DNA from: Candidatus Abzuiibacterium crystallinum
Lineage (GTDB): Bacteria; Omnitrophota; Omnitrophia; Omnitrophales; Abzuiibacteriaceae
Direction: 5' to 3'
DNA: 64,000 nt
NCBI GenBank assembly: GCA_002787155.1
Contig: PCVY01000065.1
Span: 65,286-129,285, forward strand
A program made the translations under genes and the position numbers. The notes under the pieces are model-generated. The model was not told where the DNA came from. It was given only the letters and a program-made list of their open reading frames with translations, and searched no databases. This document shows, piece after piece, positions 4,310-43,160 of the stretch (position 1 is the first letter of the stretch; every line of letters starts with the position of its first letter).

Positions 4310-6154
4310 TTGACTGAATGGCTCATTCTTTTTCTACCCTTCTTCGCTGCTGTCATCATTGCGCTCGGCACGCAGCGTTACGCTAAATTAAGCGCTGCGG
4401 TGGCGCTGACGAGCATCATCGCGTCTTTGATTTTAACCTGCCGGCTCGGTCTTCCTGAACTTTTTGAAGGTCATTTCTCAACCATTGAGAAAAGCCTCTC
4501 TTGGATCACCTTGCCGGGGCTTTCATTTGAGTTTGGTTTATTAATCAACACGCTATCCTTTGCCATGCTTTTAATTGTTCTGGTGGTTGCCCTGTGCATC
4601 TTTTACTATTCCGTCGAATACATGGAAGGTGAGAAGGGATTTGCCCGTTATTTTGCTTATTTAGCTTTTTTTACCTTCTCCATGCTGGGCATTGTGCTGT
4701 CTAATAATTTCCTCCAACTCTTCATCTTTTGGGAATTAGTGGGCGTCAGCTCTTATCTTTTAATCGGTTTCTGGTATGAAAAACATTCGGCGGCTGATGC
4801 CGGCAAAAAAGCTTTTCTCACCAACCGGATCGGTGATTACGGTTTTATTCTGGGCATCATCCTGCTGTGGACCTTGTCTTCAACATGGCAGGTGGAAACG
4901 CTGAACTTTTTACATCTGGCAAATTATTTGGCAGGTGCTCATTCTCATTCGCATGAAACGCTTCTCACCGTCATTTCTCTTTTGATTTTCTGCGGTGTGA
5001 TTGGTAAGTCAGCCCAGTTTCCTTTGCATGTGTGGCTGCCGGACGCCATGGAAGGCCCGACACCTGTGAGTGCTCTCATTCATGCTGCTACGATGGTAGC
5101 TGCCGGCGTTTATTTGCTAGCGCGCGTTTTCTTTTTGTTTCACCAGTCGCCTCTGGCGCTTGAAATGATCGCTTATTTGGGCGGCTTTACGGCCATTTTT
5201 GCCGCAACGCAGGCGTTGGTACAAACCGATCTGAAACGCGTCCTGGCTTACTCGACTTTAAGTCAATTAGGCTACATGGTTTTGGCCATCGGCTTGGGTT
5301 CGGCCGGCATTGCGATGTTTCATTTGACCACCCATGCCTTCTTTAAAGCCCTGCTTTTCCTAGGAGCCGGGTCCGTCATTCACATGACCCACGAGCAAGA
5401 CATGACTCGCTTGGGAAATTTAAGCCAAAGAATGCCAATCACAACCGGTTTATTTATCGTGGGCGCTTTAGCTTTAAGCGGTTTTTTTCCTTTCAGCGGG
5501 TTTTGGAGTAAGGACGAAATCTTAGTGTTGGCGTTACATCAAAATAGTTGGCTTTATGTCATTGCCATGTTGACTGCTTTTCTGACTGCCGTTTATATCA
5601 CCCGTGCCGTCATTTTAACGTTTTTTGGCTCATCTCAGGCAGAACACGGGCATGAACCGAAGCAGTGGATGTTAATTCCAATGATTTTGTTAGCTATTCT
5701 GTCGCTCGTAAGCGGTTTCCGTGTCCCCGAAATCATGCATCAATCCTTGGATCATCCGGTTCACTGGAACTGGCAGGTAGCCATCGTCAGCACACTGATG
5801 ACTTTGTGCGGGATCGCGCTTTCTGTTTGGCTTTATCAATTTCAACCGCAAATCGTGGTCAAAATACGAGGGAAATTTTCCGGAATTTATCAAATATTAA
5901 ACCGGCGCTACTACATGGATGATTTTTACGATTGGGTCATTCAAAAAATTCAAGCGCCCTTTTCACGAACTTGTTCGGCATTTGAATCTCACGTGGTCGT
6001 GCAAGGTTTGGTTAATTCAACTGCGCGATTGACCGGTGCATGCGGTCATTGGCTCAGGAAAATGCAAACGGGCCGTCTGCAAAACTATGTTACCGTCTTT
6101 TTTGCCGGTGTGGTTCTGATCATTTATTGCCTCATGGCACGGGTGATTTCATGA
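4310..6154 (+). CDS. nuoL: NADH-quinone oxidoreductase subunit L
   Basis: 614-aa antiporter-like subunit (Mrp/ND5 family motifs such as WLPDAMEGPTPVSALIHAATMV). Confidence 0.9.
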   Translation: MTEWLILFLPFFAAVIIALGTQRYAKLSAAVALTSIIASLILTCRLGLPELFEGHFSTIEKSLSWITLPGLSFEFGLLINTLSFAMLLIVLVVALCIFYYSVEYMEGEKGFARYFAYLAFFTFSMLGIVLSNNFLQLFIFWELVGVSSYLLIGFWYEKHSAADAGKKAFLTNRIGDYGFILGIILLWTLSSTWQVETLNFLHLANYLAGAHSHSHETLLTVISLLIFCGVIGKSAQFPLHVWLPDAMEGPTPVSALIHAATMVAAGVYLLARVFFLFHQSPLALEMIAYLGGFTAIFAATQALVQTDLKRVLAYSTLSQLGYMVLAIGLGSAGIAMFHLTTHAFFKALLFLGAGSVIHMTHEQDMTRLGNLSQRMPITTGLFIVGALALSGFFPFSGFWSKDEILVLALHQNSWLYVIAMLTAFLTAVYITRAVILTFFGSSQAEHGHEPKQWMLIPMILLAILSLVSGFRVPEIMHQSLDHPVHWNWQVAIVSTLMTLCGIALSVWLYQFQPQIVVKIRGKFSGIYQILNRRYYMDDFYDWVIQKIQAPFSRTCSAFESHVVVQGLVNSTARLTGACGHWLRKMQTGRLQNYVTVFFAGVVLIIYCLMARVIS

Positions 6155-22532: not shown

Positions 22533-23645
22533 TTACCGGCCCCAACGCTTTTTAGGTGTTGGTGTGGTACTAACCGGTCCAAGAACATTGGATTTAGCAG
22601 CCTGCTGAATAAACTGGCCCTGATCATATGCGGTTTCTAAGGCTGACTCGTAGCTGATAATCCCTTTGGCGTAAAGATCTATTAAATGGCTGTCCAAGGT
22701 CCGCATGCCGAATTTGTGTCCGGTTTGAATTTCCGAAAAGATCTGAAAGGTTTTATTTTCCCGGATTAAGTTTGAAATCGCGGGTGTTTGGATCATGATT
22801 TCAAAAGCCGCGACACGTCCATCCTGATCAATGCGCGGAATCAGCGCTTGAGACACAACCGCGATTAAAGTGACTGAAAGCTGAACGCGAATTTGCGCCT
22901 GCTGGTGCGAAGGAAAAACGTCAATCACACGATCAACGGTTCTGGCAGCACCGGTGGTATGGAGTGTTGCAAATACCAAGTGCCCCGTTTCAGCTGCGGT
23001 GATGGCAGCTTCCATGGTCGCTAAGTCTCTCATTTCTCCGATCAGCAGAACGTCGGGGTCTTGACGCAGTGACTTGACGACCGCCTCAGAAAAAGATGGG
23101 ACGTCGACACCGACTTCGCGCTGAACAATGATGCCGCGTTTGTGTTCATGGACAAATTCGATCGGATCTTCAATGGTCACAATGTGTGCCGGATGATTCG
23201 CATTGATGTAATCAATCATGGTAGCCAATGTGGTTGATTTACCGCTGCCTGTCGGACCCGTCACCAAAATGAGACCGCGCGGCCGGTTGAGCAGCTGCAC
23301 CACCTTTTCCGGGATACCAATGGCATCAAAATCAAAAAATCGGTTCGGCAATAAACGAAGCACCATGCCGATGTAACTCTTTTGTCTGAAAGCAGAAACA
23401 CGCAACCGAGAGGTCTTCGCATAAGCAAAGCCAAAATCAACGCCGCCGACACGGTCTATTTTCTGCCGATGCGATTCATCGGTAATTGCGCGCATGTATT
23501 CTTCGGTATCCTGCTCGCTCAGTTCTTTGTCGCTAATGGAAACCAAATCCCCATTCAACCGAAAAGTAATTGGACGGCCTACTTCCAAATGAATATCAGA
23601 GGCACGTTTTTCAAAGGCGAGTTCGATGATTTCACGAATGTTCAT
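22533..23645 (-). CDS. pilT: Type IV pilus retraction ATPase PilT
   Basis: Walker A GPTGSGKST, Asp box, His box and the PilT-specific AISNLIRENK motif. Confidence 0.85.
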   Translation of the reverse strand: MNIREIIELAFEKRASDIHLEVGRPITFRLNGDLVSISDKELSEQDTEEYMRAITDESHRQKIDRVGGVDFGFAYAKTSRLRVSAFRQKSYIGMVLRLLPNRFFDFDAIGIPEKVVQLLNRPRGLILVTGPTGSGKSTTLATMIDYINANHPAHIVTIEDPIEFVHEHKRGIIVQREVGVDVPSFSEAVVKSLRQDPDVLLIGEMRDLATMEAAITAAETGHLVFATLHTTGAARTVDRVIDVFPSHQQAQIRVQLSVTLIAVVSQALIPRIDQDGRVAAFEIMIQTPAISNLIRENKTFQIFSEIQTGHKFGMRTLDSHLIDLYAKGIISYESALETAYDQGQFIQQAAKSNVLGPVSTTPTPKKRWGR

Positions 23646-23878
23646 TCAAACCAACTTTCTATAGTTAAAAGAAATCAATAATGTCTCGTTAAGGTGATAA
23701 CGGCTTAATTTAAAAAATCTTCACCCAAACCTTCTTACTAAAAGCTACCCGATAAAAAATCGGCTGTCTAGAACCGTTAGACAGATATCATATTATATTA
23801 CCGGGCAAGTCTTCCGGTGGCACCTGAAAAATAGTCATTTTTTACCCATAAGGCCGCTAATTTCATTGTCTAACGGCA

Positions 23879-24424
23879 CTAGGGCAAGTGAATAAACCGC
23901 AATCCGTAGAGCGTCATCAGATAAATAGCCGCTGTCATGAGCAGAATTGGCAGGCCTCTCCACAATCGAGGAACGTCCGATAATCTTATCCGCTCACTCA
24001 GCGCTATCACCGCCATGGAAAAGAAAATGCTGACAAAGGAAATCAACAGAATTTTGATGTGCTGTATTTCCCAGGAATCCCATTCGGATACTTGCAGCCA
24101 TGTCATTGTTAGAAATAAAACGGAAAATGTAGACAGGGATGGAAACGACTGCTTTTGTTTTTCAATGGATTTCCCTTCCATTTGAAATAACGTCATCAAT
24201 CCCTCCCCGACCGCACAGCTTAAAAAAGCAACAACGACCGCGGTCCACCAATCAAGCCCGATATCGAGAAAGAAACGGCGTATGATTTCTGTGACAATCA
24301 AAGCGATATAAATCATGACCCACAAACCGCCAATTGTGCGCATCAAAGTTCTCATTGATAAACCATAGAAAACTCTTTGAATCAGCGCAAGTACCAACAG
24401 GATTGCAAACCAATGCATGCTCAT
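23879..24424 (-). CDS. Small polytopic membrane protein, possibly a very divergent RnfA/RnfE (NqrDE-family)-like subunit
   Basis: 181-aa ORF with about 5 TM helices. The C-terminal ALSERIRLSDVPRLWRGLPILLMTAAIYL resembles the RnfA/RnfE C-terminus ([30 protein letters not shown]). The canonical LGLCP and TTNC motifs are absent. Confidence 0.35.
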   Translation of the reverse strand: MSMHWFAILLVLALIQRVFYGLSMRTLMRTIGGLWVMIYIALIVTEIIRRFFLDIGLDWWTAVVVAFLSCAVGEGLMTLFQMEGKSIEKQKQSFPSLSTFSVLFLTMTWLQVSEWDSWEIQHIKILLISFVSIFFSMAVIALSERIRLSDVPRLWRGLPILLMTAAIYLMTLYGLRFIHLP

Positions 24425-32946: not shown

Positions 32947-35900
32947 TTAAGCCATTTCGGCAATCCGGCTCCATGATCGGATCTCCCGATCGAGAATATC
33001 AGCCAAACCGGCAATGCCTGATCTTAAATTTTTGATGGTGTTGTCTGAAAGTGTAATAATGCGATCGTAAAACTCGGACAACCGGGAATTGGCAAGTGTT
33101 GTTCTGGTCAATAGAGTGAGTCGCTTAGCACCACTCGCACGTAACTTGACGGCCAAAGCTTGAGGTGTTTTGGCAAAAACGATTTTTCGGTCTTCCGGAA
33201 GCATCGCATTGGCATTTTGAATCAATTCTAATTCGGAACCGGTCGTATAAACCACGCCTATCAATGTGCCGCTGTGTGCTGCTTCGGTTGCTAAAGCAAA
33301 AAGCCCGTCCCCAAAAGCAACGCTCCAGTCAAAAACAGTTGCTTGTGATTGGTCAAGCGTGGCACTGATGCCAAGTCGATCATAAAAATAAGATTTGGCA
33401 CTTGGATTTTGGTCAAACAAAGCATGAGCTTGTTCTACCGCGCGGGCAAATTGTGTTCTATCATTGGCGGATTCCGGCAATGCGATTCTTAACTCAGCTC
33501 GTTCATCAACATTCGATGCCGCGCGTGCTAGCTGGTGTGTAACGGTTGCAATGAGCCGGTCACCTTCATTTGGCGCATTTGTAATGGCTTTTGACACTGC
33601 TTGCACGAAACGCGCGGGCACTCTTCTCTCAATAAGGGCGGCCGCCCATTCGCCGATCGCAAACGCCCAAGCACGCCAATCATCGGCAGGAATGGTTGTC
33701 AAAGCATCAACCAATGTGCGCTTTCCGGCATCTTTCATGATTTCAGATTGAATGATTTGGAAAGTAATTTTGTCACCCACTGAAGCTGCTGCCGCTAATT
33801 GCAGCACCCACGCCCAAAGGCGGTTGGTAATATCGCCAGGCGTTTGGTTGGGAAGTTCTTTGGTGCGGATAATTCCAAACTCTTTCCATTCATTGTAATC
33901 GATAGAACCATCTTCGCTCATGGCATATAAAATAAGCAAATAACCAAACGCCCATATTTCAAATTCAGTTTTCGGCATATCCGCTCTCGCCATCACGTCT
34001 TCTATTTGATAAAGCCAAGGACCAAATAAGTTTTCTCGTAAAGGCGCCCGGCCTCTGGCTTGGAATTCGGCCAAAGCCATTCTGCCGATTAACCATCGCC
34101 GCCAACTTTGGAACGATTCTTCAGTCAGTCTTTCAATATCCTGTTTCATAAAATCTTTGATTTGAGAATAAATTCGGTTGCCATTCCCGGCAGCAACCAA
34201 TAAAGCAACGCTTGCGCTGTAAGCACGCAGTTTAATTTCCTCTTGCGTGTTACCCGGCATCGCTTTCATTGCTTCAAAAAACCGCCACACTTGCTTAGAC
34301 ACTTCTTTCTTATCGGTGTAATCGATCTCGCGCAGATTGATTACAAATTTTCCGCGCAGCTCAGAATGACCGGATCTTTTATTTCGTTTCATACGAAGCT
34401 TATATTGGAGATCGGTTTGAATACCGATGGATACATACAATCTGTTTAATTCTTCTTTTGCCTTTTTAATTCTTACTTCGTCTTGATCAACTTCGGCTTG
34501 TACACGTTCTTCCATTAACGCCAACCACATTTTAACGACAATTGGAATGCCTGCTAAATAGCGTTCTCCAGTATGGACGTCATGTTCTAAATCAAGAATG
34601 ATTTCTTCATCCGCATCATCAGTGATGCTATTAATAAAGGCGCCCATCCGGGCATCTTCGATTTGCCTATCAAGACTCAGGTTGGTACGAAGAATTAAAA
34701 CTTGAACAATATTAAATTCATCCAAAATAGATTCGGCTAAATTTTCCTTGCTTGCCATTGTTCTTAAAGTTGCTAGTTTGGGCAAGATGCGATTTCTGGA
34801 TGTTTCGATAAGCTGCATCAAAGAAATTTGAGATTGAATGCGTAATTCTGCATGGCCGGAAGAACTTTCTTTTGATTCCGCGAGTTTGATACTGATACCA
34901 ACAATGCGGCCGGCGCCTGCAAAATCTCCCAAAAGAAGGACGGTTGGTTCTTTGCTGCCATTTTCTTTGACAACCAAACTGGTTAGTTCTTCATCCTGAA
35001 AGGATACGAATGTGCCATAAATGACACGATTCGTCGTTTGTCCATGCGCACGATAAAGCAATCGGATTGAATCGCCCGGTTTGAGCGAGTTCGCCAATAA
35101 AAATTCGGCATTAAGCGTTTGTTCGATATTCAGTCGAATTTTCTGATTTGACCGTATTTCAAAACGACGCACCTCGCCATCTTGACTGACAAAAGTGATT
35201 AGCACTTCTAAACCGGTTACTTTGTTCCGGTAATGCATCGCAGAACCGGGATTAAAATATGTTTGGCGGCCAGGGTCGACCAATGTTTCATTTTTGCCGT
35301 GATTGATATAAATTACTTCTAAATTGCGGGGTCGTACGCCTCGGTAGGGTTTGGGGAACTGAAAAACATTTTTATTGGCTCTGTTCTGAACAACGCCTAT
35401 GGGTAACAAAAAGTCTTGGTTAAAATTAATGGTCATCCATCGGTACGGCAAGGCAATGGTGGTTGAAAATTTTAATTCTGTTTGTTCTTTTTCATCTGAT
35501 TTTGTTTCAATTTCATCTTCAGCAGGTTTTTGACGCAATTCTGAATGAGTCGAAGCTGAGACGATTTTAGCAAGCACAATACCTAAGGCCCGAATTTCAC
35601 CGGTACCCTCAAAATCCTCCAAGGGGAATACGGTTGGAACGAGCTTATCATTTTCTTGAACCACTAAGTGATTGACCGTATCACCGATTTCGTAACTCAC
35701 AAAATGACCTTTAACGGGCCGGCCTTTGTTTTCTCCGTGCAAACGATAGAAGAAGTGAATTTCATCTCCCGATTTTAATGAATCAGCAAGCATGAAATCA
35801 ATATGCCGTGCTCTTTTAAATGTCAGGCGAATTTTTTTGTTAGATTTTATTTCAAAACGCCGGCCGGTATCGTTTTTTGAAACATATTCGATTGAAACAA

Positions 35901-37128
35901 CTAATCCTGTTGTTTTGTTTTCAATTCGTGCAGACTTGCCAACATTCACATAAACTTGCTCACCTAAAGCAGCGGGAATTTCTTTTCCCTCTACATTAAC
36001 ATAGATTAATTGAAGATCGGACCCAGGTCGGCGGTTTTTGGGATAGTTAAACAGCGTGACGGCTGTTTTCTTTGACTGGACAATGCCAAACGGTAATGTA
36101 AACTCGTCGCCGAAATTCACGCCTACCCATTCATGCGGAATGGTAATAAAAGCCGAAAAAGGTAACTGTATTTGGTCTGCAATGATTTCTTTATCCTTTT
36201 CTATGAAACGTAATTCTTGACGACTTAAGAGTTTTTGTTCGGCTGATTTTGCAGCTTTATTCACATCCTGATCAAAGAGGCCAAAGACACTTATTGTTTT
36301 TATCCAATCCCGCAACTCTGAACGTTCAAAAGTAACTTCAAAATCACCCATCATGAGCCGCCCGTCTGTAGCGGCAAAGCGCAAGCGATTACCGTTAATA
36401 TGTTTGAGAAGAATCGAAACACCCGCTTTCGAATCAACGGGTTGCTGGCGGCCTTTTAAATCAGCCAATTTTGAATCTCTTGAAGTAGTTATAAACGCTT
36501 CTGCCGCGGAAATTAACCAAGCCAATGCTGCTTGATTATCATCACGATCAACATCCAATAAAGTATAAAGCTGCGGATGTGGATTAAAACTTCCGGGAAT
36601 AAGCGCAAGTTTAAAAGGATACCTTTTCCTGGGCGGTAGATTTTGAGGCGGCGCTGTTTCTAGCGGAAGAAGTTCTTTTAAGATATCAAGAACAGTTCTC
36701 GGAATTCTTCCTTCAGAATTAATGATACCGGCTTTTTTCCAAGCTTTCCCTGCTGTTTGTACCTCTGAATCTTGAGGGGTAAGTTTATTGTGTACAAGAC
36801 CTCTTAGAATGCTGCGCTCTTCTTGTGTCAGCCCCACGAGCATCTGGTTGACTTGATTTTTTAAAGTCTCGCCTTCTCTTAATTCTGCTCTTAATTCAGG
36901 TGCCGTTTGTAAACGTGAAAGCGCTTCCATTGACCCTGTTTGTTGCAACCACCCATTGTTAATGAGCGTTTGCTGTCTGGCATGCGAAAATTCTTCACGA
37001 ATGGTTTGTGTAACGGTAGTAGGAACGTCGGAATATGCGATTGTCTCCGTCCAGCTAAAAGCCGCTACGAGCACAATGGCAATGGTTTTAAGAAGAATTG
37101 GGTTTGACTTCGTTTTTAGAAAGGACAT
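32947..37128 (-). CDS. Giant secreted protein (1393 aa) with two tandem ~210-aa internal repeats, function unknown
   Basis: Sec-type signal peptide. Repeats at about aa 322-532 and aa 553-763 (nt ~35533-36165 and ~34840-35472) share LP(F/I)G(I/V)VQ…(I/V)Y(V/I)N…KTTGL/KVTGL…RRFEI(K/R)SN(K/Q)KIRL…SLK(S/P)GD…HG…V(K/I)YGTFVS… at about 35-40% identity. The long C-terminal half is predicted to be helical. Confidence 0.7.
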   Translation of the reverse strand: MSFLKTKSNPILLKTIAIVLVAAFSWTETIAYSDVPTTVTQTIREEFSHARQQTLINNGWLQQTGSMEALSRLQTAPELRAELREGETLKNQVNQMLVGLTQEERSILRGLVHNKLTPQDSEVQTAGKAWKKAGIINSEGRIPRTVLDILKELLPLETAPPQNLPPRKRYPFKLALIPGSFNPHPQLYTLLDVDRDDNQAALAWLISAAEAFITTSRDSKLADLKGRQQPVDSKAGVSILLKHINGNRLRFAATDGRLMMGDFEVTFERSELRDWIKTISVFGLFDQDVNKAAKSAEQKLLSRQELRFIEKDKEIIADQIQLPFSAFITIPHEWVGVNFGDEFTLPFGIVQSKKTAVTLFNYPKNRRPGSDLQLIYVNVEGKEIPAALGEQVYVNVGKSARIENKTTGLVVSIEYVSKNDTGRRFEIKSNKKIRLTFKRARHIDFMLADSLKSGDEIHFFYRLHGENKGRPVKGHFVSYEIGDTVNHLVVQENDKLVPTVFPLEDFEGTGEIRALGIVLAKIVSASTHSELRQKPAEDEIETKSDEKEQTELKFSTTIALPYRWMTINFNQDFLLPIGVVQNRANKNVFQFPKPYRGVRPRNLEVIYINHGKNETLVDPGRQTYFNPGSAMHYRNKVTGLEVLITFVSQDGEVRRFEIRSNQKIRLNIEQTLNAEFLLANSLKPGDSIRLLYRAHGQTTNRVIYGTFVSFQDEELTSLVVKENGSKEPTVLLLGDFAGAGRIVGISIKLAESKESSSGHAELRIQSQISLMQLIETSRNRILPKLATLRTMASKENLAESILDEFNIVQVLILRTNLSLDRQIEDARMGAFINSITDDADEEIILDLEHDVHTGERYLAGIPIVVKMWLALMEERVQAEVDQDEVRIKKAKEELNRLYVSIGIQTDLQYKLRMKRNKRSGHSELRGKFVINLREIDYTDKKEVSKQVWRFFEAMKAMPGNTQEEIKLRAYSASVALLVAAGNGNRIYSQIKDFMKQDIERLTEESFQSWRRWLIGRMALAEFQARGRAPLRENLFGPWLYQIEDVMARADMPKTEFEIWAFGYLLILYAMSEDGSIDYNEWKEFGIIRTKELPNQTPGDITNRLWAWVLQLAAAASVGDKITFQIIQSEIMKDAGKRTLVDALTTIPADDWRAWAFAIGEWAAALIERRVPARFVQAVSKAITNAPNEGDRLIATVTHQLARAASNVDERAELRIALPESANDRTQFARAVEQAHALFDQNPSAKSYFYDRLGISATLDQSQATVFDWSVAFGDGLFALATEAAHSGTLIGVVYTTGSELELIQNANAMLPEDRKIVFAKTPQALAVKLRASGAKRLTLLTRTTLANSRLSEFYDRIITLSDNTIKNLRSGIAGLADILDREIRSWSRIAEMA

Positions 37129-37227
37129 GCGTCAACCATTCAAAAGCTGAAATAACTGGATCAAGCTTAACTGCTATGCCTCCTATTGTCAATATAAAAT
37201 GTTATAAAAGAATAATAAATGGAATTA

Positions 37228-37249
37228 TATAGAACCATTTGGTTCTATA
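37228..37249. promoter_or_regulatory. Perfect 10-bp inverted repeat TATAGAACCA-tt-TGGTTCTATA upstream of the giant-protein gene
   Basis: Seen directly in sequence, about 100 nt upstream of the start at 37128 and 12 nt downstream of the preceding gene's stop. An AT-rich palindrome typical of dimeric HTH operator sites. Confidence 0.4.
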
Positions 37250-37260
37250 AAAAGGCTGAT

Positions 37261-38838
37261 TCAGTGGGAATATTTTCGCTTGAAGAGAACGCTCCGTCCA
37301 AACCGTTGATCCAAAACCCAACGACCGCCTCGGGAAATAGAATCGACGGTATTTCGATAATCATCCTCGCTTAATGGGTAAGTACTTGCAGCGGGATTAA
37401 GGAATAAATATTGCGCCTCATCGGCACACTCAGGAAAAATAGAGAAATCACCTTTGGGGATTAAATGAGGGAATAAAGATGATTGCACGCAGATAGCTTT
37501 CTCTCTTTTGAGAGAATTTGCATGCTCAGAAAGCAGGAATGATTCGGGTTGAGGCCAATAGATCCAGTAACGACCAATGCCGACAATCAGCAAAAGACAC
37601 GCCAGTAGAACAGTCAACCGGTCAAGCCCTTTATTCTTTAGAAACCGAAGCGCTTCAACGCATCCCACATAAGTAAGTGTGACTGGTATGAGACCATAAT
37701 GAATGCTTAAATGGCGGATGAGCGGAAATGATGAAACCGTATTTAAAAAAAGAGGTGGTAAAATATAAATGAGTGTCAAAGGACTCACCAAAGGAAGAAA
37801 TAAACATTTGACTCCAAAATTAAATAGCGTGCGGCCGGAAAGATTTTGAATAACGCTGATGGGATGACTGATAACCGTTGCCATCACTTCTGAAAAACCA
37901 TGCCCGAGATGCCCCCACGAACCTAAATAGGCATATCCGCCGCTCTTGCCTGCCAATCCATAGAAATAGGGAATTAAAACCCGAAAAGCGAGCCAACTAT
38001 ATACCATCCCCGCCATAACCAGCCAGAGGCCCTGACGCCGATTTTTGTGAGTCAAAATAAAATAAATACCGATCGGAATAAGATAAAGAGCATAATCTTC
38101 TTTCAGGGATAAAACAGCTAGGGTTGATAAGAATAATAAAATATTATTTTGACGATCAATACTGAGAAATAAGGCAAAGAAAAAAAACGGCGCAAAGAAA
38201 TCAGGGTGAAATTCATGCAAAAAAGCACCCCAGACATAACGATTGAGTAAAAAAGCTGCTCCCAAAATAAAAGCGACCGACCGATCACCAATCCGCGCTT
38301 CAGCTAACCGGCTCAAGATAACGGCGGTAGCTGCAAATGCGACGGCAGTTAGCAGAAACAGCGTTCCGACTCCGGCATGTATTTTGTAAAAGGGTGCTAA
38401 TAACGCCAAAAAGAAGATGAGATGATCTGAAAAATAAATCTGATGCTTAAAAGCATCCACAAAGCCATTGCCATTCGCTGCATTCCACAGAATGCTGTGA
38501 AAAAGACCGAGATCATGTGAATGGGTGTGAAACGAAAGATGCTGCCCCCATTTGGTTAAAAGCATCCAAATAAATGACGCCGCAATGATGATCCAAAAAA
38601 AGCCGCGGTGCCGGGCGAAGAATTGACCACGGGACATACCATAGATTAGGTAAGCAAGAATCGTTAAGCGCAGCCAAATCAGTGTTGCAGATGAAAACCT
38701 AAAAGCCGATTTGTGAATGAGCCGAGCATCAAAAAAGACGTAGCAGAAAAAAACAATCGAGCATAAAACAAGGAAAGTTTTCAGAATAAGCGGTAGAAAA
38801 TTTCTTTTTACCGTCAGTTGCATACGTGAAGATGACAA
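37261..38838 (-). CDS. Polytopic membrane protein, GT-C/DUF2079-like (putative membrane glycosyltransferase-like)
   Basis: 525 aa with 10 or more predicted TM helices, a His-rich loop (SFHTHSHDLGLFHSILWN) and a C-terminal soluble domain. The family assignment rests on general architecture only. Confidence 0.45.
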   Translation of the reverse strand: MSSSRMQLTVKRNFLPLILKTFLVLCSIVFFCYVFFDARLIHKSAFRFSSATLIWLRLTILAYLIYGMSRGQFFARHRGFFWIIIAASFIWMLLTKWGQHLSFHTHSHDLGLFHSILWNAANGNGFVDAFKHQIYFSDHLIFFLALLAPFYKIHAGVGTLFLLTAVAFAATAVILSRLAEARIGDRSVAFILGAAFLLNRYVWGAFLHEFHPDFFAPFFFFALFLSIDRQNNILLFLSTLAVLSLKEDYALYLIPIGIYFILTHKNRRQGLWLVMAGMVYSWLAFRVLIPYFYGLAGKSGGYAYLGSWGHLGHGFSEVMATVISHPISVIQNLSGRTLFNFGVKCLFLPLVSPLTLIYILPPLFLNTVSSFPLIRHLSIHYGLIPVTLTYVGCVEALRFLKNKGLDRLTVLLACLLLIVGIGRYWIYWPQPESFLLSEHANSLKREKAICVQSSLFPHLIPKGDFSIFPECADEAQYLFLNPAASTYPLSEDDYRNTVDSISRGGRWVLDQRFGRSVLFKRKYSH

Positions 38839-38918: not shown

Positions 38919-39569
38919 TTATTTTTTTTGTCTCAGTTTCGTGATTTGGTCATCTTCGCCTACGACAATCATAACATCATCCGGTTGAAACTGATACTTA
39001 GGTTCCGGCACAACTTTCAAGTTGCCCTTAAGCGGGTTTTTGACGGCCAAAACATGAAATCCATAACGGTTTCTGAGATCCAATGCCTCGATGGATTTCC
39101 CGATAAATTCCTGCGGCACCGCTACTTCTACTACGCTTTTATCCTCGCTCAACCGCACAACATCAAGCACATCGGGAGAAACGAGGCTTGAAACCAGCCG
39201 GATGGCTTCATCCCGTTCGGGAAAAACCACTTGATGCGCCCCGATAATTTTTAAAATTTTACCGTGGTCATCGCTAATGGCTTTCGCAATGATCCGCTTA
39301 GTACCGAGATCTTTCAAATGATGTGTTACCAAAACACTGGCATCAACAATATCACCCAAAGAAACCACCACTACGTCCATATCCCGCGCAAACTTCTCCA
39401 ACAAATCACGGTCCTTGGCATTCCCGATAACTACTTGCCCAACGTTGTCTTTCAGATCATCCAGCTTTTCCTGATCGATGTCGATTAAGACCACTTCGCA
39501 TTCTTTTGCCGCCATCTCCACAGCAACCGTCGCTCCGAAATTACCCGCACCAATCACCAATGCTTTCAT
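38919..39569 (-). CDS. trkA: Potassium uptake protein TrkA/KtrA (NAD-binding RCK domain)
   Basis: Rossmann motif VIGAGNFG plus a C-terminal RCK_C domain. It is adjacent to trkH. Confidence 0.8.
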   Translation of the reverse strand: MKALVIGAGNFGATVAVEMAAKECEVVLIDIDQEKLDDLKDNVGQVVIGNAKDRDLLEKFARDMDVVVVSLGDIVDASVLVTHHLKDLGTKRIIAKAISDDHGKILKIIGAHQVVFPERDEAIRLVSSLVSPDVLDVVRLSEDKSVVEVAVPQEFIGKSIEALDLRNRYGFHVLAVKNPLKGNLKVVPEPKYQFQPDDVMIVVGEDDQITKLRQKK

Positions 39570-39594
39570 ATTGCTTCTCCTCTCATCATTGATC

Positions 39595-40950
39595 TTATCC
39601 GATTACCACTTCTTCTTCCGCATATTCATAACTGGGTCCCCGTTTACGAGCCCAAAAAGCCAGCCCTAAGGTAAGCGGCCCGATACGTCCGACAAACATC
39701 AAAAAAATCGTCAATAACTTGCCCGGCGCAGACAGAACAGGCGTCACGCCGGTTGACAAACCGACGGTACCAAAAGCTGAGGTTGCCTCAAAAAAAAGAT
39801 CCAGAAAACCTCCTTTCGAAGCGGTATGAGAAATGCCGATGTGCTCTGTCACCTGATAAAGAAGGGTAGCGATACTAATTAAAACCAAAGCACTTGCAAA
39901 AACAGCTACCGCCCGCCCTACATTTTCTCTTGCAACATTGCGCCGAAAAATGGAAGCGGTGACTTTGCCCCGCATGTGGTTACGCACAAGTGCCGCTAAC
40001 ACCGCAAAGGTCGATACCTTGATACCGCCCGCGGTAGAACTGGGACAGCCTCCGATAAACATATAAAACACGATAAAGAAAAGGGTAGCGTTGGTCAAAG
40101 AAGCCGTGTGGATCGTGTTCAGACCTGCCGTGCGTGAAGTAACGGAAAGGAAAAAAGCGTTTATAATCTGTTCGTGCATCTTTAAGCCCAATAATAAATT
40201 TTGTCTTTCAAACAACCAAACTACCAAAGCACCCAATACAATTAAAACCGCACTGGTTACAAGGCAAATCCGTGTGTGTAAGCTGAGGCGCATGCGTTCT
40301 CCGTGCATGCGTTTGAACATCCACACCCGAAGCTCGTCAACTAGCATAAAACCAAGACCGCCCAGCACAATTAAGATCATAATGACCGACGGCAGATAAA
40401 TTTCTTTTTGAAAATGCATTAAACTATCTTCATACAAACTAAATCCTGCGTTACAAAAGGCGGATACCGCATGAAAAATAGACGAATAAAGTGCATAGGG
40501 CGCCGCATGGATCTCTTGAAGCCGAATATAAAGCAATGCTGCGCCCAATGTTTCAAAAGAGATCGTCATAAGAAAAACTGCTACTAAGACTGCTAATAAA
40601 TTACGTTTGTCGCCACGGTGAGGCTGGAATCCGACAGCATAGCGCGACGTCAATGTGACGCTGCGCCTTGCGACCAGCATGAAGAAAACGGAAAATGTCA
40701 TGATACCGAGTCCGCCGGCTTGCATCAAAGCAAGAATAATCAGCTGGCCGAATCGCGTCAGTTCCGTTCCAATATTAACAACACTCAAGCCGGTCACGCA
40801 AACCGCCGAGGTCGCCATAAAAAAAGCGTCTAGCCAACTAAGCGGCGCCTCGGCACTTGCATTTGGAAACATCAAAAGCAACGTGCCAAAGGCAATCACA
40901 CCTAAAAAGCTGAATGCAATCGTTTTGGCTGGGTTTAAGGTTGCTGTCAT
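39595..40950 (-). CDS. trkH: Potassium transporter TrkH/KtrB family
   Basis: 451-aa polytopic protein with repeated M1PM2 selectivity-filter-like GxG segments (TGLS, AGGL, GGCPSSTAGG, VGLSTG). Confidence 0.8.
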   Translation of the reverse strand: MTATLNPAKTIAFSFLGVIAFGTLLLMFPNASAEAPLSWLDAFFMATSAVCVTGLSVVNIGTELTRFGQLIILALMQAGGLGIMTFSVFFMLVARRSVTLTSRYAVGFQPHRGDKRNLLAVLVAVFLMTISFETLGAALLYIRLQEIHAAPYALYSSIFHAVSAFCNAGFSLYEDSLMHFQKEIYLPSVIMILIVLGGLGFMLVDELRVWMFKRMHGERMRLSLHTRICLVTSAVLIVLGALVVWLFERQNLLLGLKMHEQIINAFFLSVTSRTAGLNTIHTASLTNATLFFIVFYMFIGGCPSSTAGGIKVSTFAVLAALVRNHMRGKVTASIFRRNVARENVGRAVAVFASALVLISIATLLYQVTEHIGISHTASKGGFLDLFFEATSAFGTVGLSTGVTPVLSAPGKLLTIFLMFVGRIGPLTLGLAFWARKRGPSYEYAEEEVVIG

Positions 40951-41054
40951 AAAAAGACCATGGAATAAAGATGAGGGACGGTTTTTTTCAGGAACCGTCC
41001 CTATTTTTCTTTTACACCATTAAGTGATGACTTATGTTCTGGTGCACTTGTCAT

Positions 41055-43160
41055 TTAAAACAAATGATTCTGAGCAACAAATGATGCCAAGACAATGGCA
41101 ACCATCGACATCAATTTAATCAAGATGTTGAGAGAAGGCCCGGCTGTGTCTTTAAAAGGATCTCCTACCGTGTCACCCACGACCGCAGCTTTATGCGCGG
41201 AGGATCCTTTGCCGCCAAAATTACCTGCTTCAATATGCTTTTTCGCATTATCCCATGCGCCGCCGGCACTGGCCATCATGATGGCCAGTACAAATCCGCA
41301 CACGATACTCCCTAAAAGTAATCCGATGGTTGCTTCCACACCAAACAACCATCCAATAACAGCAGGCGCCAACAACGCTAGAATAGAAGGCAGCACCATT
41401 TCTTTTTGAGCTGCTTTGGTCACAATATCAACGCAGCGTCCGTTATCGGCCTCGGCTTTACCTTCAAGCAATCCTTTGATTTCTTTGAATTGGCGCCTGA
41501 CTTCTACGACCACCTGCTGAGCCGCGCGCCCCACCGCATCCATGGTTAAAGCACAAAAAACAAAGGGCAGCATGGCGCCGATAAAAAGCCCTACGATAAA
41601 ATTTGGATTTGTAATCGATAAACTCACCTGAAAACCCATTTTGATCACGAGATCTCGATAAGCAACCACTAATGCCAAAGCAGTCAAAGCAGCAGAACCG
41701 ATGGCAAAACCTTTTCCGGTAGCGGCTGTCGTATTGCCCAAACTATCAAGCGCGTCTGTTCGTTCCCTGACCTTCGGATCTAAATTCGCCATTTGTGCAT
41801 TGCCGCCGGCATTATCGGCAATCGGCCCATAAGCATCGGACGCTAATGTAATACCGAGTGTCGAAAGCATCCCCACTGCTGCGATCGCAATGCCGTAAAG
41901 ACCTTTTTCAAATTCCAGCTTGCCTCCTGAAAAATAGAAAGCAGCTAAAATACCAACAGCCACAAAAATAACAACCGGTGCTGTTGAAAGAAATCCGACG
42001 CCCAAACCGCGAATAATAACGGTAGCCGGTCCGGTTTGTGCACTTTCGGAAATAGAACGCGTCGGCCCATAAGTGTCCGAGGTAAAATACTCAGTGGCGA
42101 AACTAATGAGAAGCCCGACTACAAGACCCGTCACAATAGCCCAGAAGATTCCAATATTTTCCGCACCCATGACGTGGCGAACCATAAAAAATGAAAATAA
42201 AACGATAAACCCGCTGCTCGCAATAACACCGCTTCTGAGCGCTTTCAACAACTCGCCTTGATTGACGGTTTCTTTTGTTCTCACAAAGAAAAATCCGATG
42301 ATGGAAGCTAAAATGCCGCAAGCGGCAATACCGATCGGAAGCAGCATGCCGCTCAAACCAAAACCAGCGCTAACAGAAAGTGCTACCGCTGCAATAATAG
42401 AACCGATGTAGGATTCAAATAAGTCAGCGCCCATACCAGCCACATCACCAACGCAATCTCCGACGTTATCGGCAATGACCGCAGGGTTTCGGGGATCGTC
42501 TTCCGGAATGCCGGCTTCTACTTTCCCTACCAGATCGGCGCCAACATCCGCCGCTTTGGTAAAAATACCGCCGCCCACACGCGCAAAAAGTGCTTGAGAG
42601 CTAGCGCCGATTCCAAACGGCAGGATGGTTTGCGAAAGAAGAAGCAGGCGATCAGCTTCGGTTAATTCGCCGCTGCCCATGAAATAATGATTTAATGCGA
42701 AATACCAACCCGTCACATAAATGACCCCGAGGCCTACAACGGTAAAACCCATCACGGCACCGCCTGAGAAAGCGACGCGGAGGGCTTGATTTAAGCTGGT
42801 AATCGCCGCATGCGCTGTCCGGCTGCTGGAACTGGTTGCGATAGTCATTCCAATATATCCGGCTAAAGCCGAAAATAAACCGCCGATTAAAAACGCAAAT
42901 GGGACAAAAATAAGGAAGTATCCTTGTGAAGACAAATAAAGCAGGATAATAAAAACAACCGTGAAAAAAACAGACACCCCGATATATTGGCGGCGTAAAT
43001 ACGCGCGTGCACCCACTTTTACCGCATTGGCAATATGGCGCATTCGCTCATTGCCATCCGGACTCCAAAAAATGCGCATCATGAGATAAACTGAAAAACC
43101 CAGCGCCAAAAACCCGCTCAATAAGCCGCTCACGGCGAGCCAATCGGTTGTTATTTGCAT
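41055..43160 (-). CDS. hppA: Membrane-bound proton/sodium-translocating pyrophosphatase
   Basis: Diagnostic H+-PPase motifs GGG(I)[16 protein letters not shown] and DNVGDCVGD(V)[11 protein letters not shown]. 701 aa. Confidence 0.9.

Follow-up and report, generated by a model that had tools for sequence, protein, structure and literature searches.

A predicted exported, cysteine-free mosaic protein of an Omnitrophota bacterium carries an ELR pentapeptide at its module boundaries, a candidate processing site

Introduction

The Omnitrophota are ultra-small and probably host-dependent bacteria, and they encode the longest predicted proteins of any organism. Here we describe a predicted protein of 1393 amino acids (aa) from this phylum, together with the class of proteins to which it appears to belong. 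It is encoded by a large open reading frame (ORF) at 32947..37128 on the minus strand of a 64,000-nucleotide stretch of Candidatus Abzuiibacterium crystallinum (assembly GCA_002787155.1, contig PCVY01000065.1, positions 65,286 to 129,285), hereafter the window. The very long proteins of the phylum contain sugar-metabolism enzymes, transmembrane (TM) helices and signal peptides, and their cleavage has been hypothesised, at cut points that are stated to be unknown (bioRxiv 10.1101/2023.11.21.568195, bioRxiv 10.64898/2026.06.07.730766, PMC10066038). The Archaeovorin-type giants have genes longer than 90 kb (West-Roberts et al.) or lengths of at least 10,000 aa (2026 catalogue). With the cleavage points unknown, the main study on Omnitrophota giant proteins regarded the question of whether they are cut or act as single chains as one that could not be addressed.

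We suggest that the window protein belongs, as a small and divergent member, to a class that looks undescribed. Three features define this class of mosaic proteins in one Omnitrophota lineage, namely a leader box, a recurrent pentapeptide ending in ELR and a composition free of cysteine. Text searches of the three giant-protein papers found no mention of ELR punctuation, the leader box or the absence of cysteine, and a literature search on 'RSELR' returned unrelated software names only.

Results

The pentapeptide [RH][SA]ELR occurs six times in the 1393 aa of the window protein, where about 0.01 would be expected from composition, and the shorter ELR occurs eight times against about 0.8 expected. 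No copy of [RH][SA]ELR was found in the 27,613 aa of the other window ORFs. Reading from the N-terminus (all coordinates on the minus strand), the first copy lies in a double motif, PELRAELR (aa 77-84, 36877..36900; strict motif aa 80-84), about 45 aa past the leader; in class relatives the first R[SA]ELR stands about 25 aa past it. There follow RSELR (aa 269-273, 36310..36324), the variant RQELR directly before the repeat module R1 (aa 303-307, 36208..36222), HSELR at the end of R1 (aa 528-532, 35533..35547), HAELR at the end of the second repeat, R2 (aa 759-763, 34840..34854), HSELR directly before the module C1 (aa 921-925, 34354..34368) and RAELR in the linker between C1 and C2 (aa 1210-1214, 33487..33501). 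These positions match boundaries that are defined independently, at the ends of both repeats, the start of the C1 homology and the C1/C2 junction, and the six strict copies and one variant sit at module boundaries. Synonymous codons differ between the copies, which argues for selection on the peptide and not on the DNA; since the codons vary freely, we rejected the motif as a DNA-level repeat or recombination site.

The protein is made up of six folded or orphan modules, B, R1, R2, F, C1 and C2, all encoded on the minus strand. Module B (aa 85-268, 36325..36876) has no relatives that we could find, the exhaustive search described below having begun at aa 200. R1 (aa 308-527, 35548..36207) and R2 (aa 533-758, 34855..35532) form a tandem duplication, with 42% identity over 219 columns between aa 318-532 and 548-763 (E=3e-53). 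An AlphaFold2 (AF2) model of R1, built from a two-sequence alignment, is all-beta, with 16 strands and a predicted local distance difference test score (pLDDT) of 66; both motif-bearing ends are disordered in the model (pLDDT <50), including that with HSELR at aa 528-532. The modelled fold weakly resembles an FHA-like sandwich followed by a small SH3/Sm-like barrel, a likeness that we regard as tentative. Module F (aa 764-920, 34369..34839) is an orphan.

The C-terminal modules have relatives. The AF2 model of aa 926-1393, built from an alignment of 114 sequences, has a mean pLDDT of 85. Within it, C1 (aa 926-1209, 33502..34353) has 12 long helices with pLDDT >90 and is all-alpha over aa 926-1203; by predicted structure it has the (alpha/alpha)6 toroid fold of the six-hairpin glycosidases (e.g. 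GH76). The linker at aa 1205-1215, which bears ERAELR, is coil with a pLDDT of 37. We searched aa 200-1393 exhaustively with HMMER against 1.84 billion representative proteins and found about 110 relatives of C1 (aa ~929-1209), all of them free-standing proteins of about 260-360 aa, and a hydrophobic N-terminus is present in 54 of 111 such homologues. Eight C1-family proteins were scanned against Pfam and none gave a match. The near-invariant residues of the family are W1012, G1015, R1016, W1059, Y1063, W1105, D1150 and W1154, among which D1150 is the sole acidic one, as judged from sequence. C1 is of a kind comparable with the six-hairpin toroids of GH76 alpha-mannanases, GH88/GH105, N-acylglucosamine 2-epimerase, squalene-cyclase-like proteins and the C3d/A2M thioester domain. 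It differs from these families in sharing just 5-10% identity with them, in length (about 280 aa against their 330-400 aa) and in giving no Pfam or PDB sequence match.

C2 (aa 1215-1393, 32950..33486) is an alpha/beta domain with five strands. The same HMMER search found five relatives of aa ~1204-1393, and the module is C-terminal in all six known carriers, namely the window protein, four shorter metagenomic proteins and a protein of 4770 aa, P0072, of which it forms the last 200 residues. The match to the P0072 C-terminus is significant (E=8e-9 in the library search, 1.6e-16 locally) and ties the window protein to the class by homology. A GTDB genome scan with a second C2 alignment, the earlier one having been too divergent, gave no confirmed relative, and a word-index search with a C2 profile returned P0100 only. 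Neither C1 nor C2 has a PDB match by sequence or profile.

Other members of the class are longer and show more clearly what the motif separates. P0072 comes from a metagenome-assembled genome, GCA_964387845.1, which also carries an orthologue of the DUF2079 gene discussed below, and its gene adjoins genes for proteins of 2595 and 4508 aa (locus L011). All three long proteins of this locus open with the box F[ST]FT..[VI][AG]Y[ST]D. The 4770-aa and 2595-aa proteins have no cysteine and 17-18 [RK][SA]ELR motifs each, and in the 4508-aa protein residues 1-103 show the leader box, two motifs and no cysteine. By Pfam coordinates, two RidA domains, UDPGP, a HEAT region, PGM I-III and GDH N+C each lie between consecutive motifs in these proteins. 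The motif never cuts a multi-domain enzyme, PGM I-III and GDH N+C being kept whole, so that in longer class members it separates whole enzyme-sized units. The 2595-aa protein ends in ...RSELRTLRSA, with the motif five residues from its C-terminus, and a single-module relative, P0042, consists of a leader, RSELR and C2. Members of the class are alike over their first ~100 residues only, that is the leader and the first and second motifs, and their modules are otherwise unrelated.

The same leader box is found at loci L020, L021 and L025, and a metagenome search with a DNA pattern for the leader added members with lengths of 868, 1675, 3203 and >734 aa, complete examples of the class ranging from 868 to 4770 aa. 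Among GTDB species representatives the pattern matched GCA_964387845.1 only, together with one chance match in a FlgI signal peptide. The motif and the lack of cysteine extend to the C-terminal portions of two more proteins, of 2383 aa (L004) and 1591 aa (L009). When ORFs with at least two motifs were pooled, their 16,313 aa held 65 motifs and no cysteine, whereas the other ORFs of the same loci had two motifs in 55,770 aa and 1.17% cysteine. Expressed per 1000 aa, the motif density is 4.3 in the window protein, 4.0 in the class and 0.036 in the background, an enrichment of about 100-fold in cysteine-free, leader-bearing proteins. Over 52 instances the motif is sharply defined (R45/K4/H3, S44/A7/Q1, E52, L51/F1, R52), with flanks that are not conserved.

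Other features of these loci were also noted. The PGM, UDPGP, GDH and RidA folds embedded in the long proteins of L011 (324-22712) are normally cytoplasmic, and no cysteine occurs there over 7365 aa. On contig Ga0268299_1000036 of L020, an in-frame TGA at 5450-5452 (...NEITEAL-stop-VLEDTKEGY...) divides 868 aa from 1675 aa of the same frame; both parts bear the motif and are free of cysteine, and the second starts without a leader. Read-through or recoding of the stop codon, an error in sequencing, or the presence of two genes could account for this arrangement. The genes for the 2595-aa and 4508-aa proteins of L011 flank a further gene (22751-24325), whose 524-aa product begins with a signal-peptide-like segment and gave no match in Pfam. 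This product is possibly an accessory factor; as a candidate partner it was set aside, there being no homologue in the window.

The leader of the window protein (aa 1-33, 37030..37128, minus strand) was called from hydropathy and by analogy. It has a lysine-rich n-region, a hydrophobic core and the box AFSWTETIAYS/D, in which the stroke marks the predicted signal-peptidase I site. The core, aa 8-30, is the sole hydrophobic stretch of the whole protein and is preceded by lysine and followed by TETIAYS/DVPT. The product of the ORF has no cysteine, and its leader is of the N-in/C-out type. The class box is F-[ST]-[FW]-T-x-x-[IV]-[AG]-Y-[ST]/D, and its counterpart here is AFSWTETIAYSD at aa 23-34. 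An unrelated FlgI precursor (L016) has the same junction, ...SSVAYS/DRIKD, which supports the AYS/D box as a signal-peptidase I site. Export is supported by the leader, by the absence of cysteine and by the signal-peptide-like N-terminus of about half of the free-standing C1 homologues. We consider it very probable that the 1393-aa protein is both a member of the class and exported.

The gene itself is annotated as COV74_08640 in Candidatus Omnitrophica bacterium CG11 (GCA_002781965.1, contig PFGO01000092.1). Identical copies of the protein are found on 11 contigs from several samples. Its GC content is 0.41-0.42 against a window average of about 0.45 (window 34000-38000), and this AT-richness is compatible with recent acquisition or fast evolution, without being decisive. 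There is no obvious Shine-Dalgarno sequence directly before the ATG, and the frame upstream is closed by a stop codon; an AGGAGG lies at 37180-37185 (minus strand), about 50 nucleotides 5' of the ATG. No Pfam, NCBIfam or PDB sequence match was obtained for the whole protein or for its isolated modules, which gave only sub-threshold Pfam noise, including a B3 match in R2 (E=0.003). A word-index search with the full protein found the query itself as its sole match, no paralogue was found elsewhere in the window, and the HMMER search found no relative of aa 200-928, both repeats included. By sequence comparison, then, the orphan status of the protein over most of its length is mostly confirmed.

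A large protein with a beta-rich duplication and no annotated domain invites two other explanations, namely a classical adhesin or autotransporter-like surface protein (the preliminary description of this locus had called it adhesin- or effector-like), or a decaying, non-functional ORF. We looked for autotransporter and polymorphic membrane protein (Pmp) features and found none: searches of Pfam gave no adhesin, autotransporter or Pmp match, and the C-terminus is modelled as an alpha/beta domain and not as a beta-barrel. Decay is at odds with a 4.2-kb reading frame that is intact and the same on all 11 contigs, and with the maintenance of the motif and of the cysteine-free composition. Both explanations therefore appear most improbable. 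The features that the preliminary description listed were confirmed at their coordinates. The ORF is indeed the largest in the window, the leader proposed as a Sec signal peptide is present on the evidence of hydropathy and analogy, the tandem duplication is slightly more similar than the 35-40% identity reported, and the view that the protein is not housekeeping is supported. The claim of a helical C-terminal half holds for aa 926-1203 and fails for the alpha/beta region at aa 1215-1393; that of no known family holds for Pfam, NCBIfam and PDB, except that the C-terminal 470 aa have relatives. Those relatives, the lack of cysteine and the recurrent ELR motif had been overlooked.

The gene upstream, COV74_08645 (37261..38823, minus strand), codes for 520 aa when read from the ATG at 38823, or 525 from a TTG at 38838, and is a strong match to DUF2079 (PF09852), with 164.5 bits against a gathering threshold of 28.2 (E=6.2e-48). 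The product is polytopic by hydropathy and has a His-rich loop, HLSFHTHSHDLGLFH and HLSFHTHSHDLG; the near-invariant residues of the family are D104 (in HSHDLG), H134, H206 and E242. We take DUF2079 to be placed in the GT-C clan of membrane glycosyltransferases. Hydropathy shows several TM segments in the neighbouring protein, and the near-invariant D104 is acidic. No PDB relative was found by sequence or profile, and a literature search found neither a characterised member of DUF2079/PF09852 nor a functional paper. The two genes are on the same strand, 132 nucleotides apart. Between them, 12 nucleotides after the DUF2079 stop codon, is a 10+10 bp palindrome, TATAGAACCA-nn-TGGTTCTATA (37228..37249), which is unique in the window and was matched in none of the shuffled sequences. 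As RNA it would form a hairpin of -10.8 kcal/mol (z=-3.7), and it overlaps the best promoter-like site of the region, TTTATA-16-TATAAT (37224-37251, minus strand). The preliminary description had correctly recognised the membrane protein as DUF2079-like and had seen the perfect 10-bp palindrome.

It had also proposed that the two genes form a module, in which the GT-C-like DUF2079 protein would glycosylate or export the large one. Adjacency on one strand and a polytopic neighbour with a conserved acidic residue and a His-rich region in its first loop speak for this idea. Among 12 DUF2079 orthologues of 42-50% identity, gene context was read for seven, and all seven keep the order glutaredoxin-PilT-like ATPase-UDG-PALP-DUF2079-[0 to 5 variable genes]-<GcvT-like-<MutY-BioA-BioD. 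None of the seven has a homologue of the 1393-aa protein beside DUF2079, and the slot between DUF2079 and gcvT is empty in four (L006, L007, L008 and L010). In L004, L005 and L009 it is occupied by NUDIX or epimerase genes and by genes for polytopic proteins of about 720-810 aa, which are related to each other and unrelated to the window protein. Since no homologue is found at that site in seven relatives, we take the large gene to be a lineage-specific insertion in a variable slot. Other class members are encoded at unrelated loci, and the space between the two genes holds a hairpin and the best promoter-like site. On this comparison of gene order, DUF2079 forms part of a conserved housekeeping backbone, and its association with the large protein is not a conserved one; a functional two-gene module is very improbable, the pairing having failed on the lack of conserved linkage. 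As a DUF2079 glycosylation site the serine of the motif was likewise rejected, because alanine takes its place in 7 of the 52 instances and there is no linkage between the genes.

Further genes of the region deserve brief mention. In the window, genes for an H+-pyrophosphatase, TrkH and TrkA (38919-43160, minus strand) lie between the PALP gene and DUF2079; PALP and DUF2079 are adjacent or nearly so in all seven relatives, and both sides of DUF2079 therefore appear to be insertion-prone here. The rest of the window carries housekeeping genes, and AcrB, a TolC-like OEP and an OmpL-like porin indicate a diderm envelope. The polytopic slot family has no Pfam match, shares the motif HDTFHFFSLQYYYLNH and is 50-61% identical among its members (L004 10092-15061; L005 10433-12697 and 15224-17269; L009 10121-12487). 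In L005 it stands beside sugar epimerases and a GT2 gene, which suggests a glycan pathway around DUF2079. This glycan role is a further point that can be made for the two-gene module.

Discussion

We suggest that the window protein would be exported by Sec and cleaved after A-Y-S, and that its motifs, lying in exposed and disordered linkers, would be recognised by a dedicated factor, either in the periplasm or on the surface of the diderm cell. That factor would most likely be an Arg-directed protease that frees the modules, in which case the gene product would be a small bacterial polyprotein. C1, with its six-hairpin toroid and Trp-rich core, would most likely bind or process a glycan of the cell's own envelope or that of a host or prey, and the beta-rich R modules and C2 may serve binding or targeting. 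DUF2079 would be a backbone gene with no specific link to the large protein.

The sharp pentapeptide with its unconserved flanks, the disordered linkers, the protein-sized units, P0042 and the copy near the C-terminus of the 2595-aa protein together make a processing site the most likely role of the motif. Taken as a whole, the proposal of a Sec-exported mosaic in which the motif is a recognition site, probably for processing, seems to us evenly poised, a compromise between the high probability of export and class membership and the lower one of cleavage. The putative cleavage step at the motif falls somewhat short of an even chance by itself. The fullest version, in which [RK/H][SA]ELR is the cleavage signal of a dedicated system and these genes encode bacterial polyproteins that are exported and then cut, is offered tentatively, and we consider it doubtful as it stands.

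The protein might instead remain an uncut multi-domain chain, in which ELR is a linker, helix-cap or docking element, or a leftover of module shuffling; docking partners might be a scaffold, a chaperone, the translocon or an envelope polymer. The common N-terminal cassette followed by unrelated modules is a mosaic typical of domain shuffling, and both the lack of a known protease and the in-domain copies of the motif described below can be counted for such a chain. However, unconserved flanks and linkers modelled as disordered fit it poorly, the unconserved codons argue against a DNA recombination site, and the units between motifs are the size of proteins and not of domains. Moreover, there is nothing to link where the motif stands five residues from a C-terminus or between a leader and a single module. 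We consider an uncut chain rather unlikely.

Several findings weigh against export and processing as we have described them. BLAST finds no N-terminal link between the window protein and class members, so that the leader box alone connects them there, and the signal peptide is itself judged from hydropathy and analogy. In the window protein His replaces Arg at position 1 of three motifs and Gln occupies position 2 of one, substitutions that mark the protein as a divergent class member. The R1 model is of just moderate confidence, and the C1 family shows no obvious conserved catalytic acid pair in comparison with the six-hairpin enzymes. No candidate protease has been identified. Finally, a conserved RSELR lies inside the folded C2 of homologues, as a strand-to-helix cap (P0039 aa 392, P0042 aa 166, P0072 aa 4670), at a position where the window protein has GSELE (aa 1297-1301, nt 33226-33240). 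The pentapeptide is thus not exclusively a linker element, and a structural, binding or docking role is possible.

If the processing proposal is true, the window gene would be the source of about six independent proteins, one of them a six-hairpin protein that binds or processes glycans, and the polyprotein reading would span proteins from 1393 aa to several thousand residues, possibly including the giants of the phylum. The motif is a concrete and testable candidate for the cleavage points of the giants, in view of its selection at the peptide level, its position in disordered linkers and between whole enzymes, and its ~100-fold enrichment. It also offers a simple rule by which such proteins can be divided up before structure prediction or annotation, and the processing idea could be tested on the 1393-aa protein, a small and tractable model. 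The total avoidance of cysteine, even in enzyme folds that are normally cytoplasmic, is a second unexplained signature.

Polymorphic toxins such as CdiA (VENN) and Rhs (PxxxxDPxGL) have a conserved N-terminal trafficking part and variable modules joined by a short junction peptide, and the ELR class shares this arrangement. It differs in that the motif occurs up to 18 times per protein and between whole enzymes, in the lack of any sequence relation, and in the absence of a toxin-immunity pair and of a type V, VI or VII secretion system (T5SS, T6SS, T7SS) context. Viral polyproteins, oomycete RxLR effectors and Plasmodium PEXEL proteins have a short motif near the signal peptide or between units. 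In the ELR class the motif likewise begins tens of residues past the signal peptide and stands between protein-sized units, although it belongs to another domain of life and reads R-S-E-L-R as against RxLR or RxLxE, and cleavage here is a proposal.

The closest likeness is to the Archaeovorin-type giants, which share with the class the phylum, a signal peptide, a mosaic of poorly conserved modules and a glycan-related module. The window protein, with 1393 aa, does not reach giant size, and it has one hydrophobic segment and no Pfam glycosyltransferase (GT), glycoside hydrolase (GH) or peptidase domain, whereas the giants are marked by many TM helices together with GT, GH, methyltransferase, peptidase or NUDIX domains. 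In contrast, its longer siblings, P0072 and others, carry the enzymes listed for the giants (PGM, PGI-like, HAD) as well as TM segments. The class passes gradually into the very long proteins that earlier work described from the Omnitrophota.

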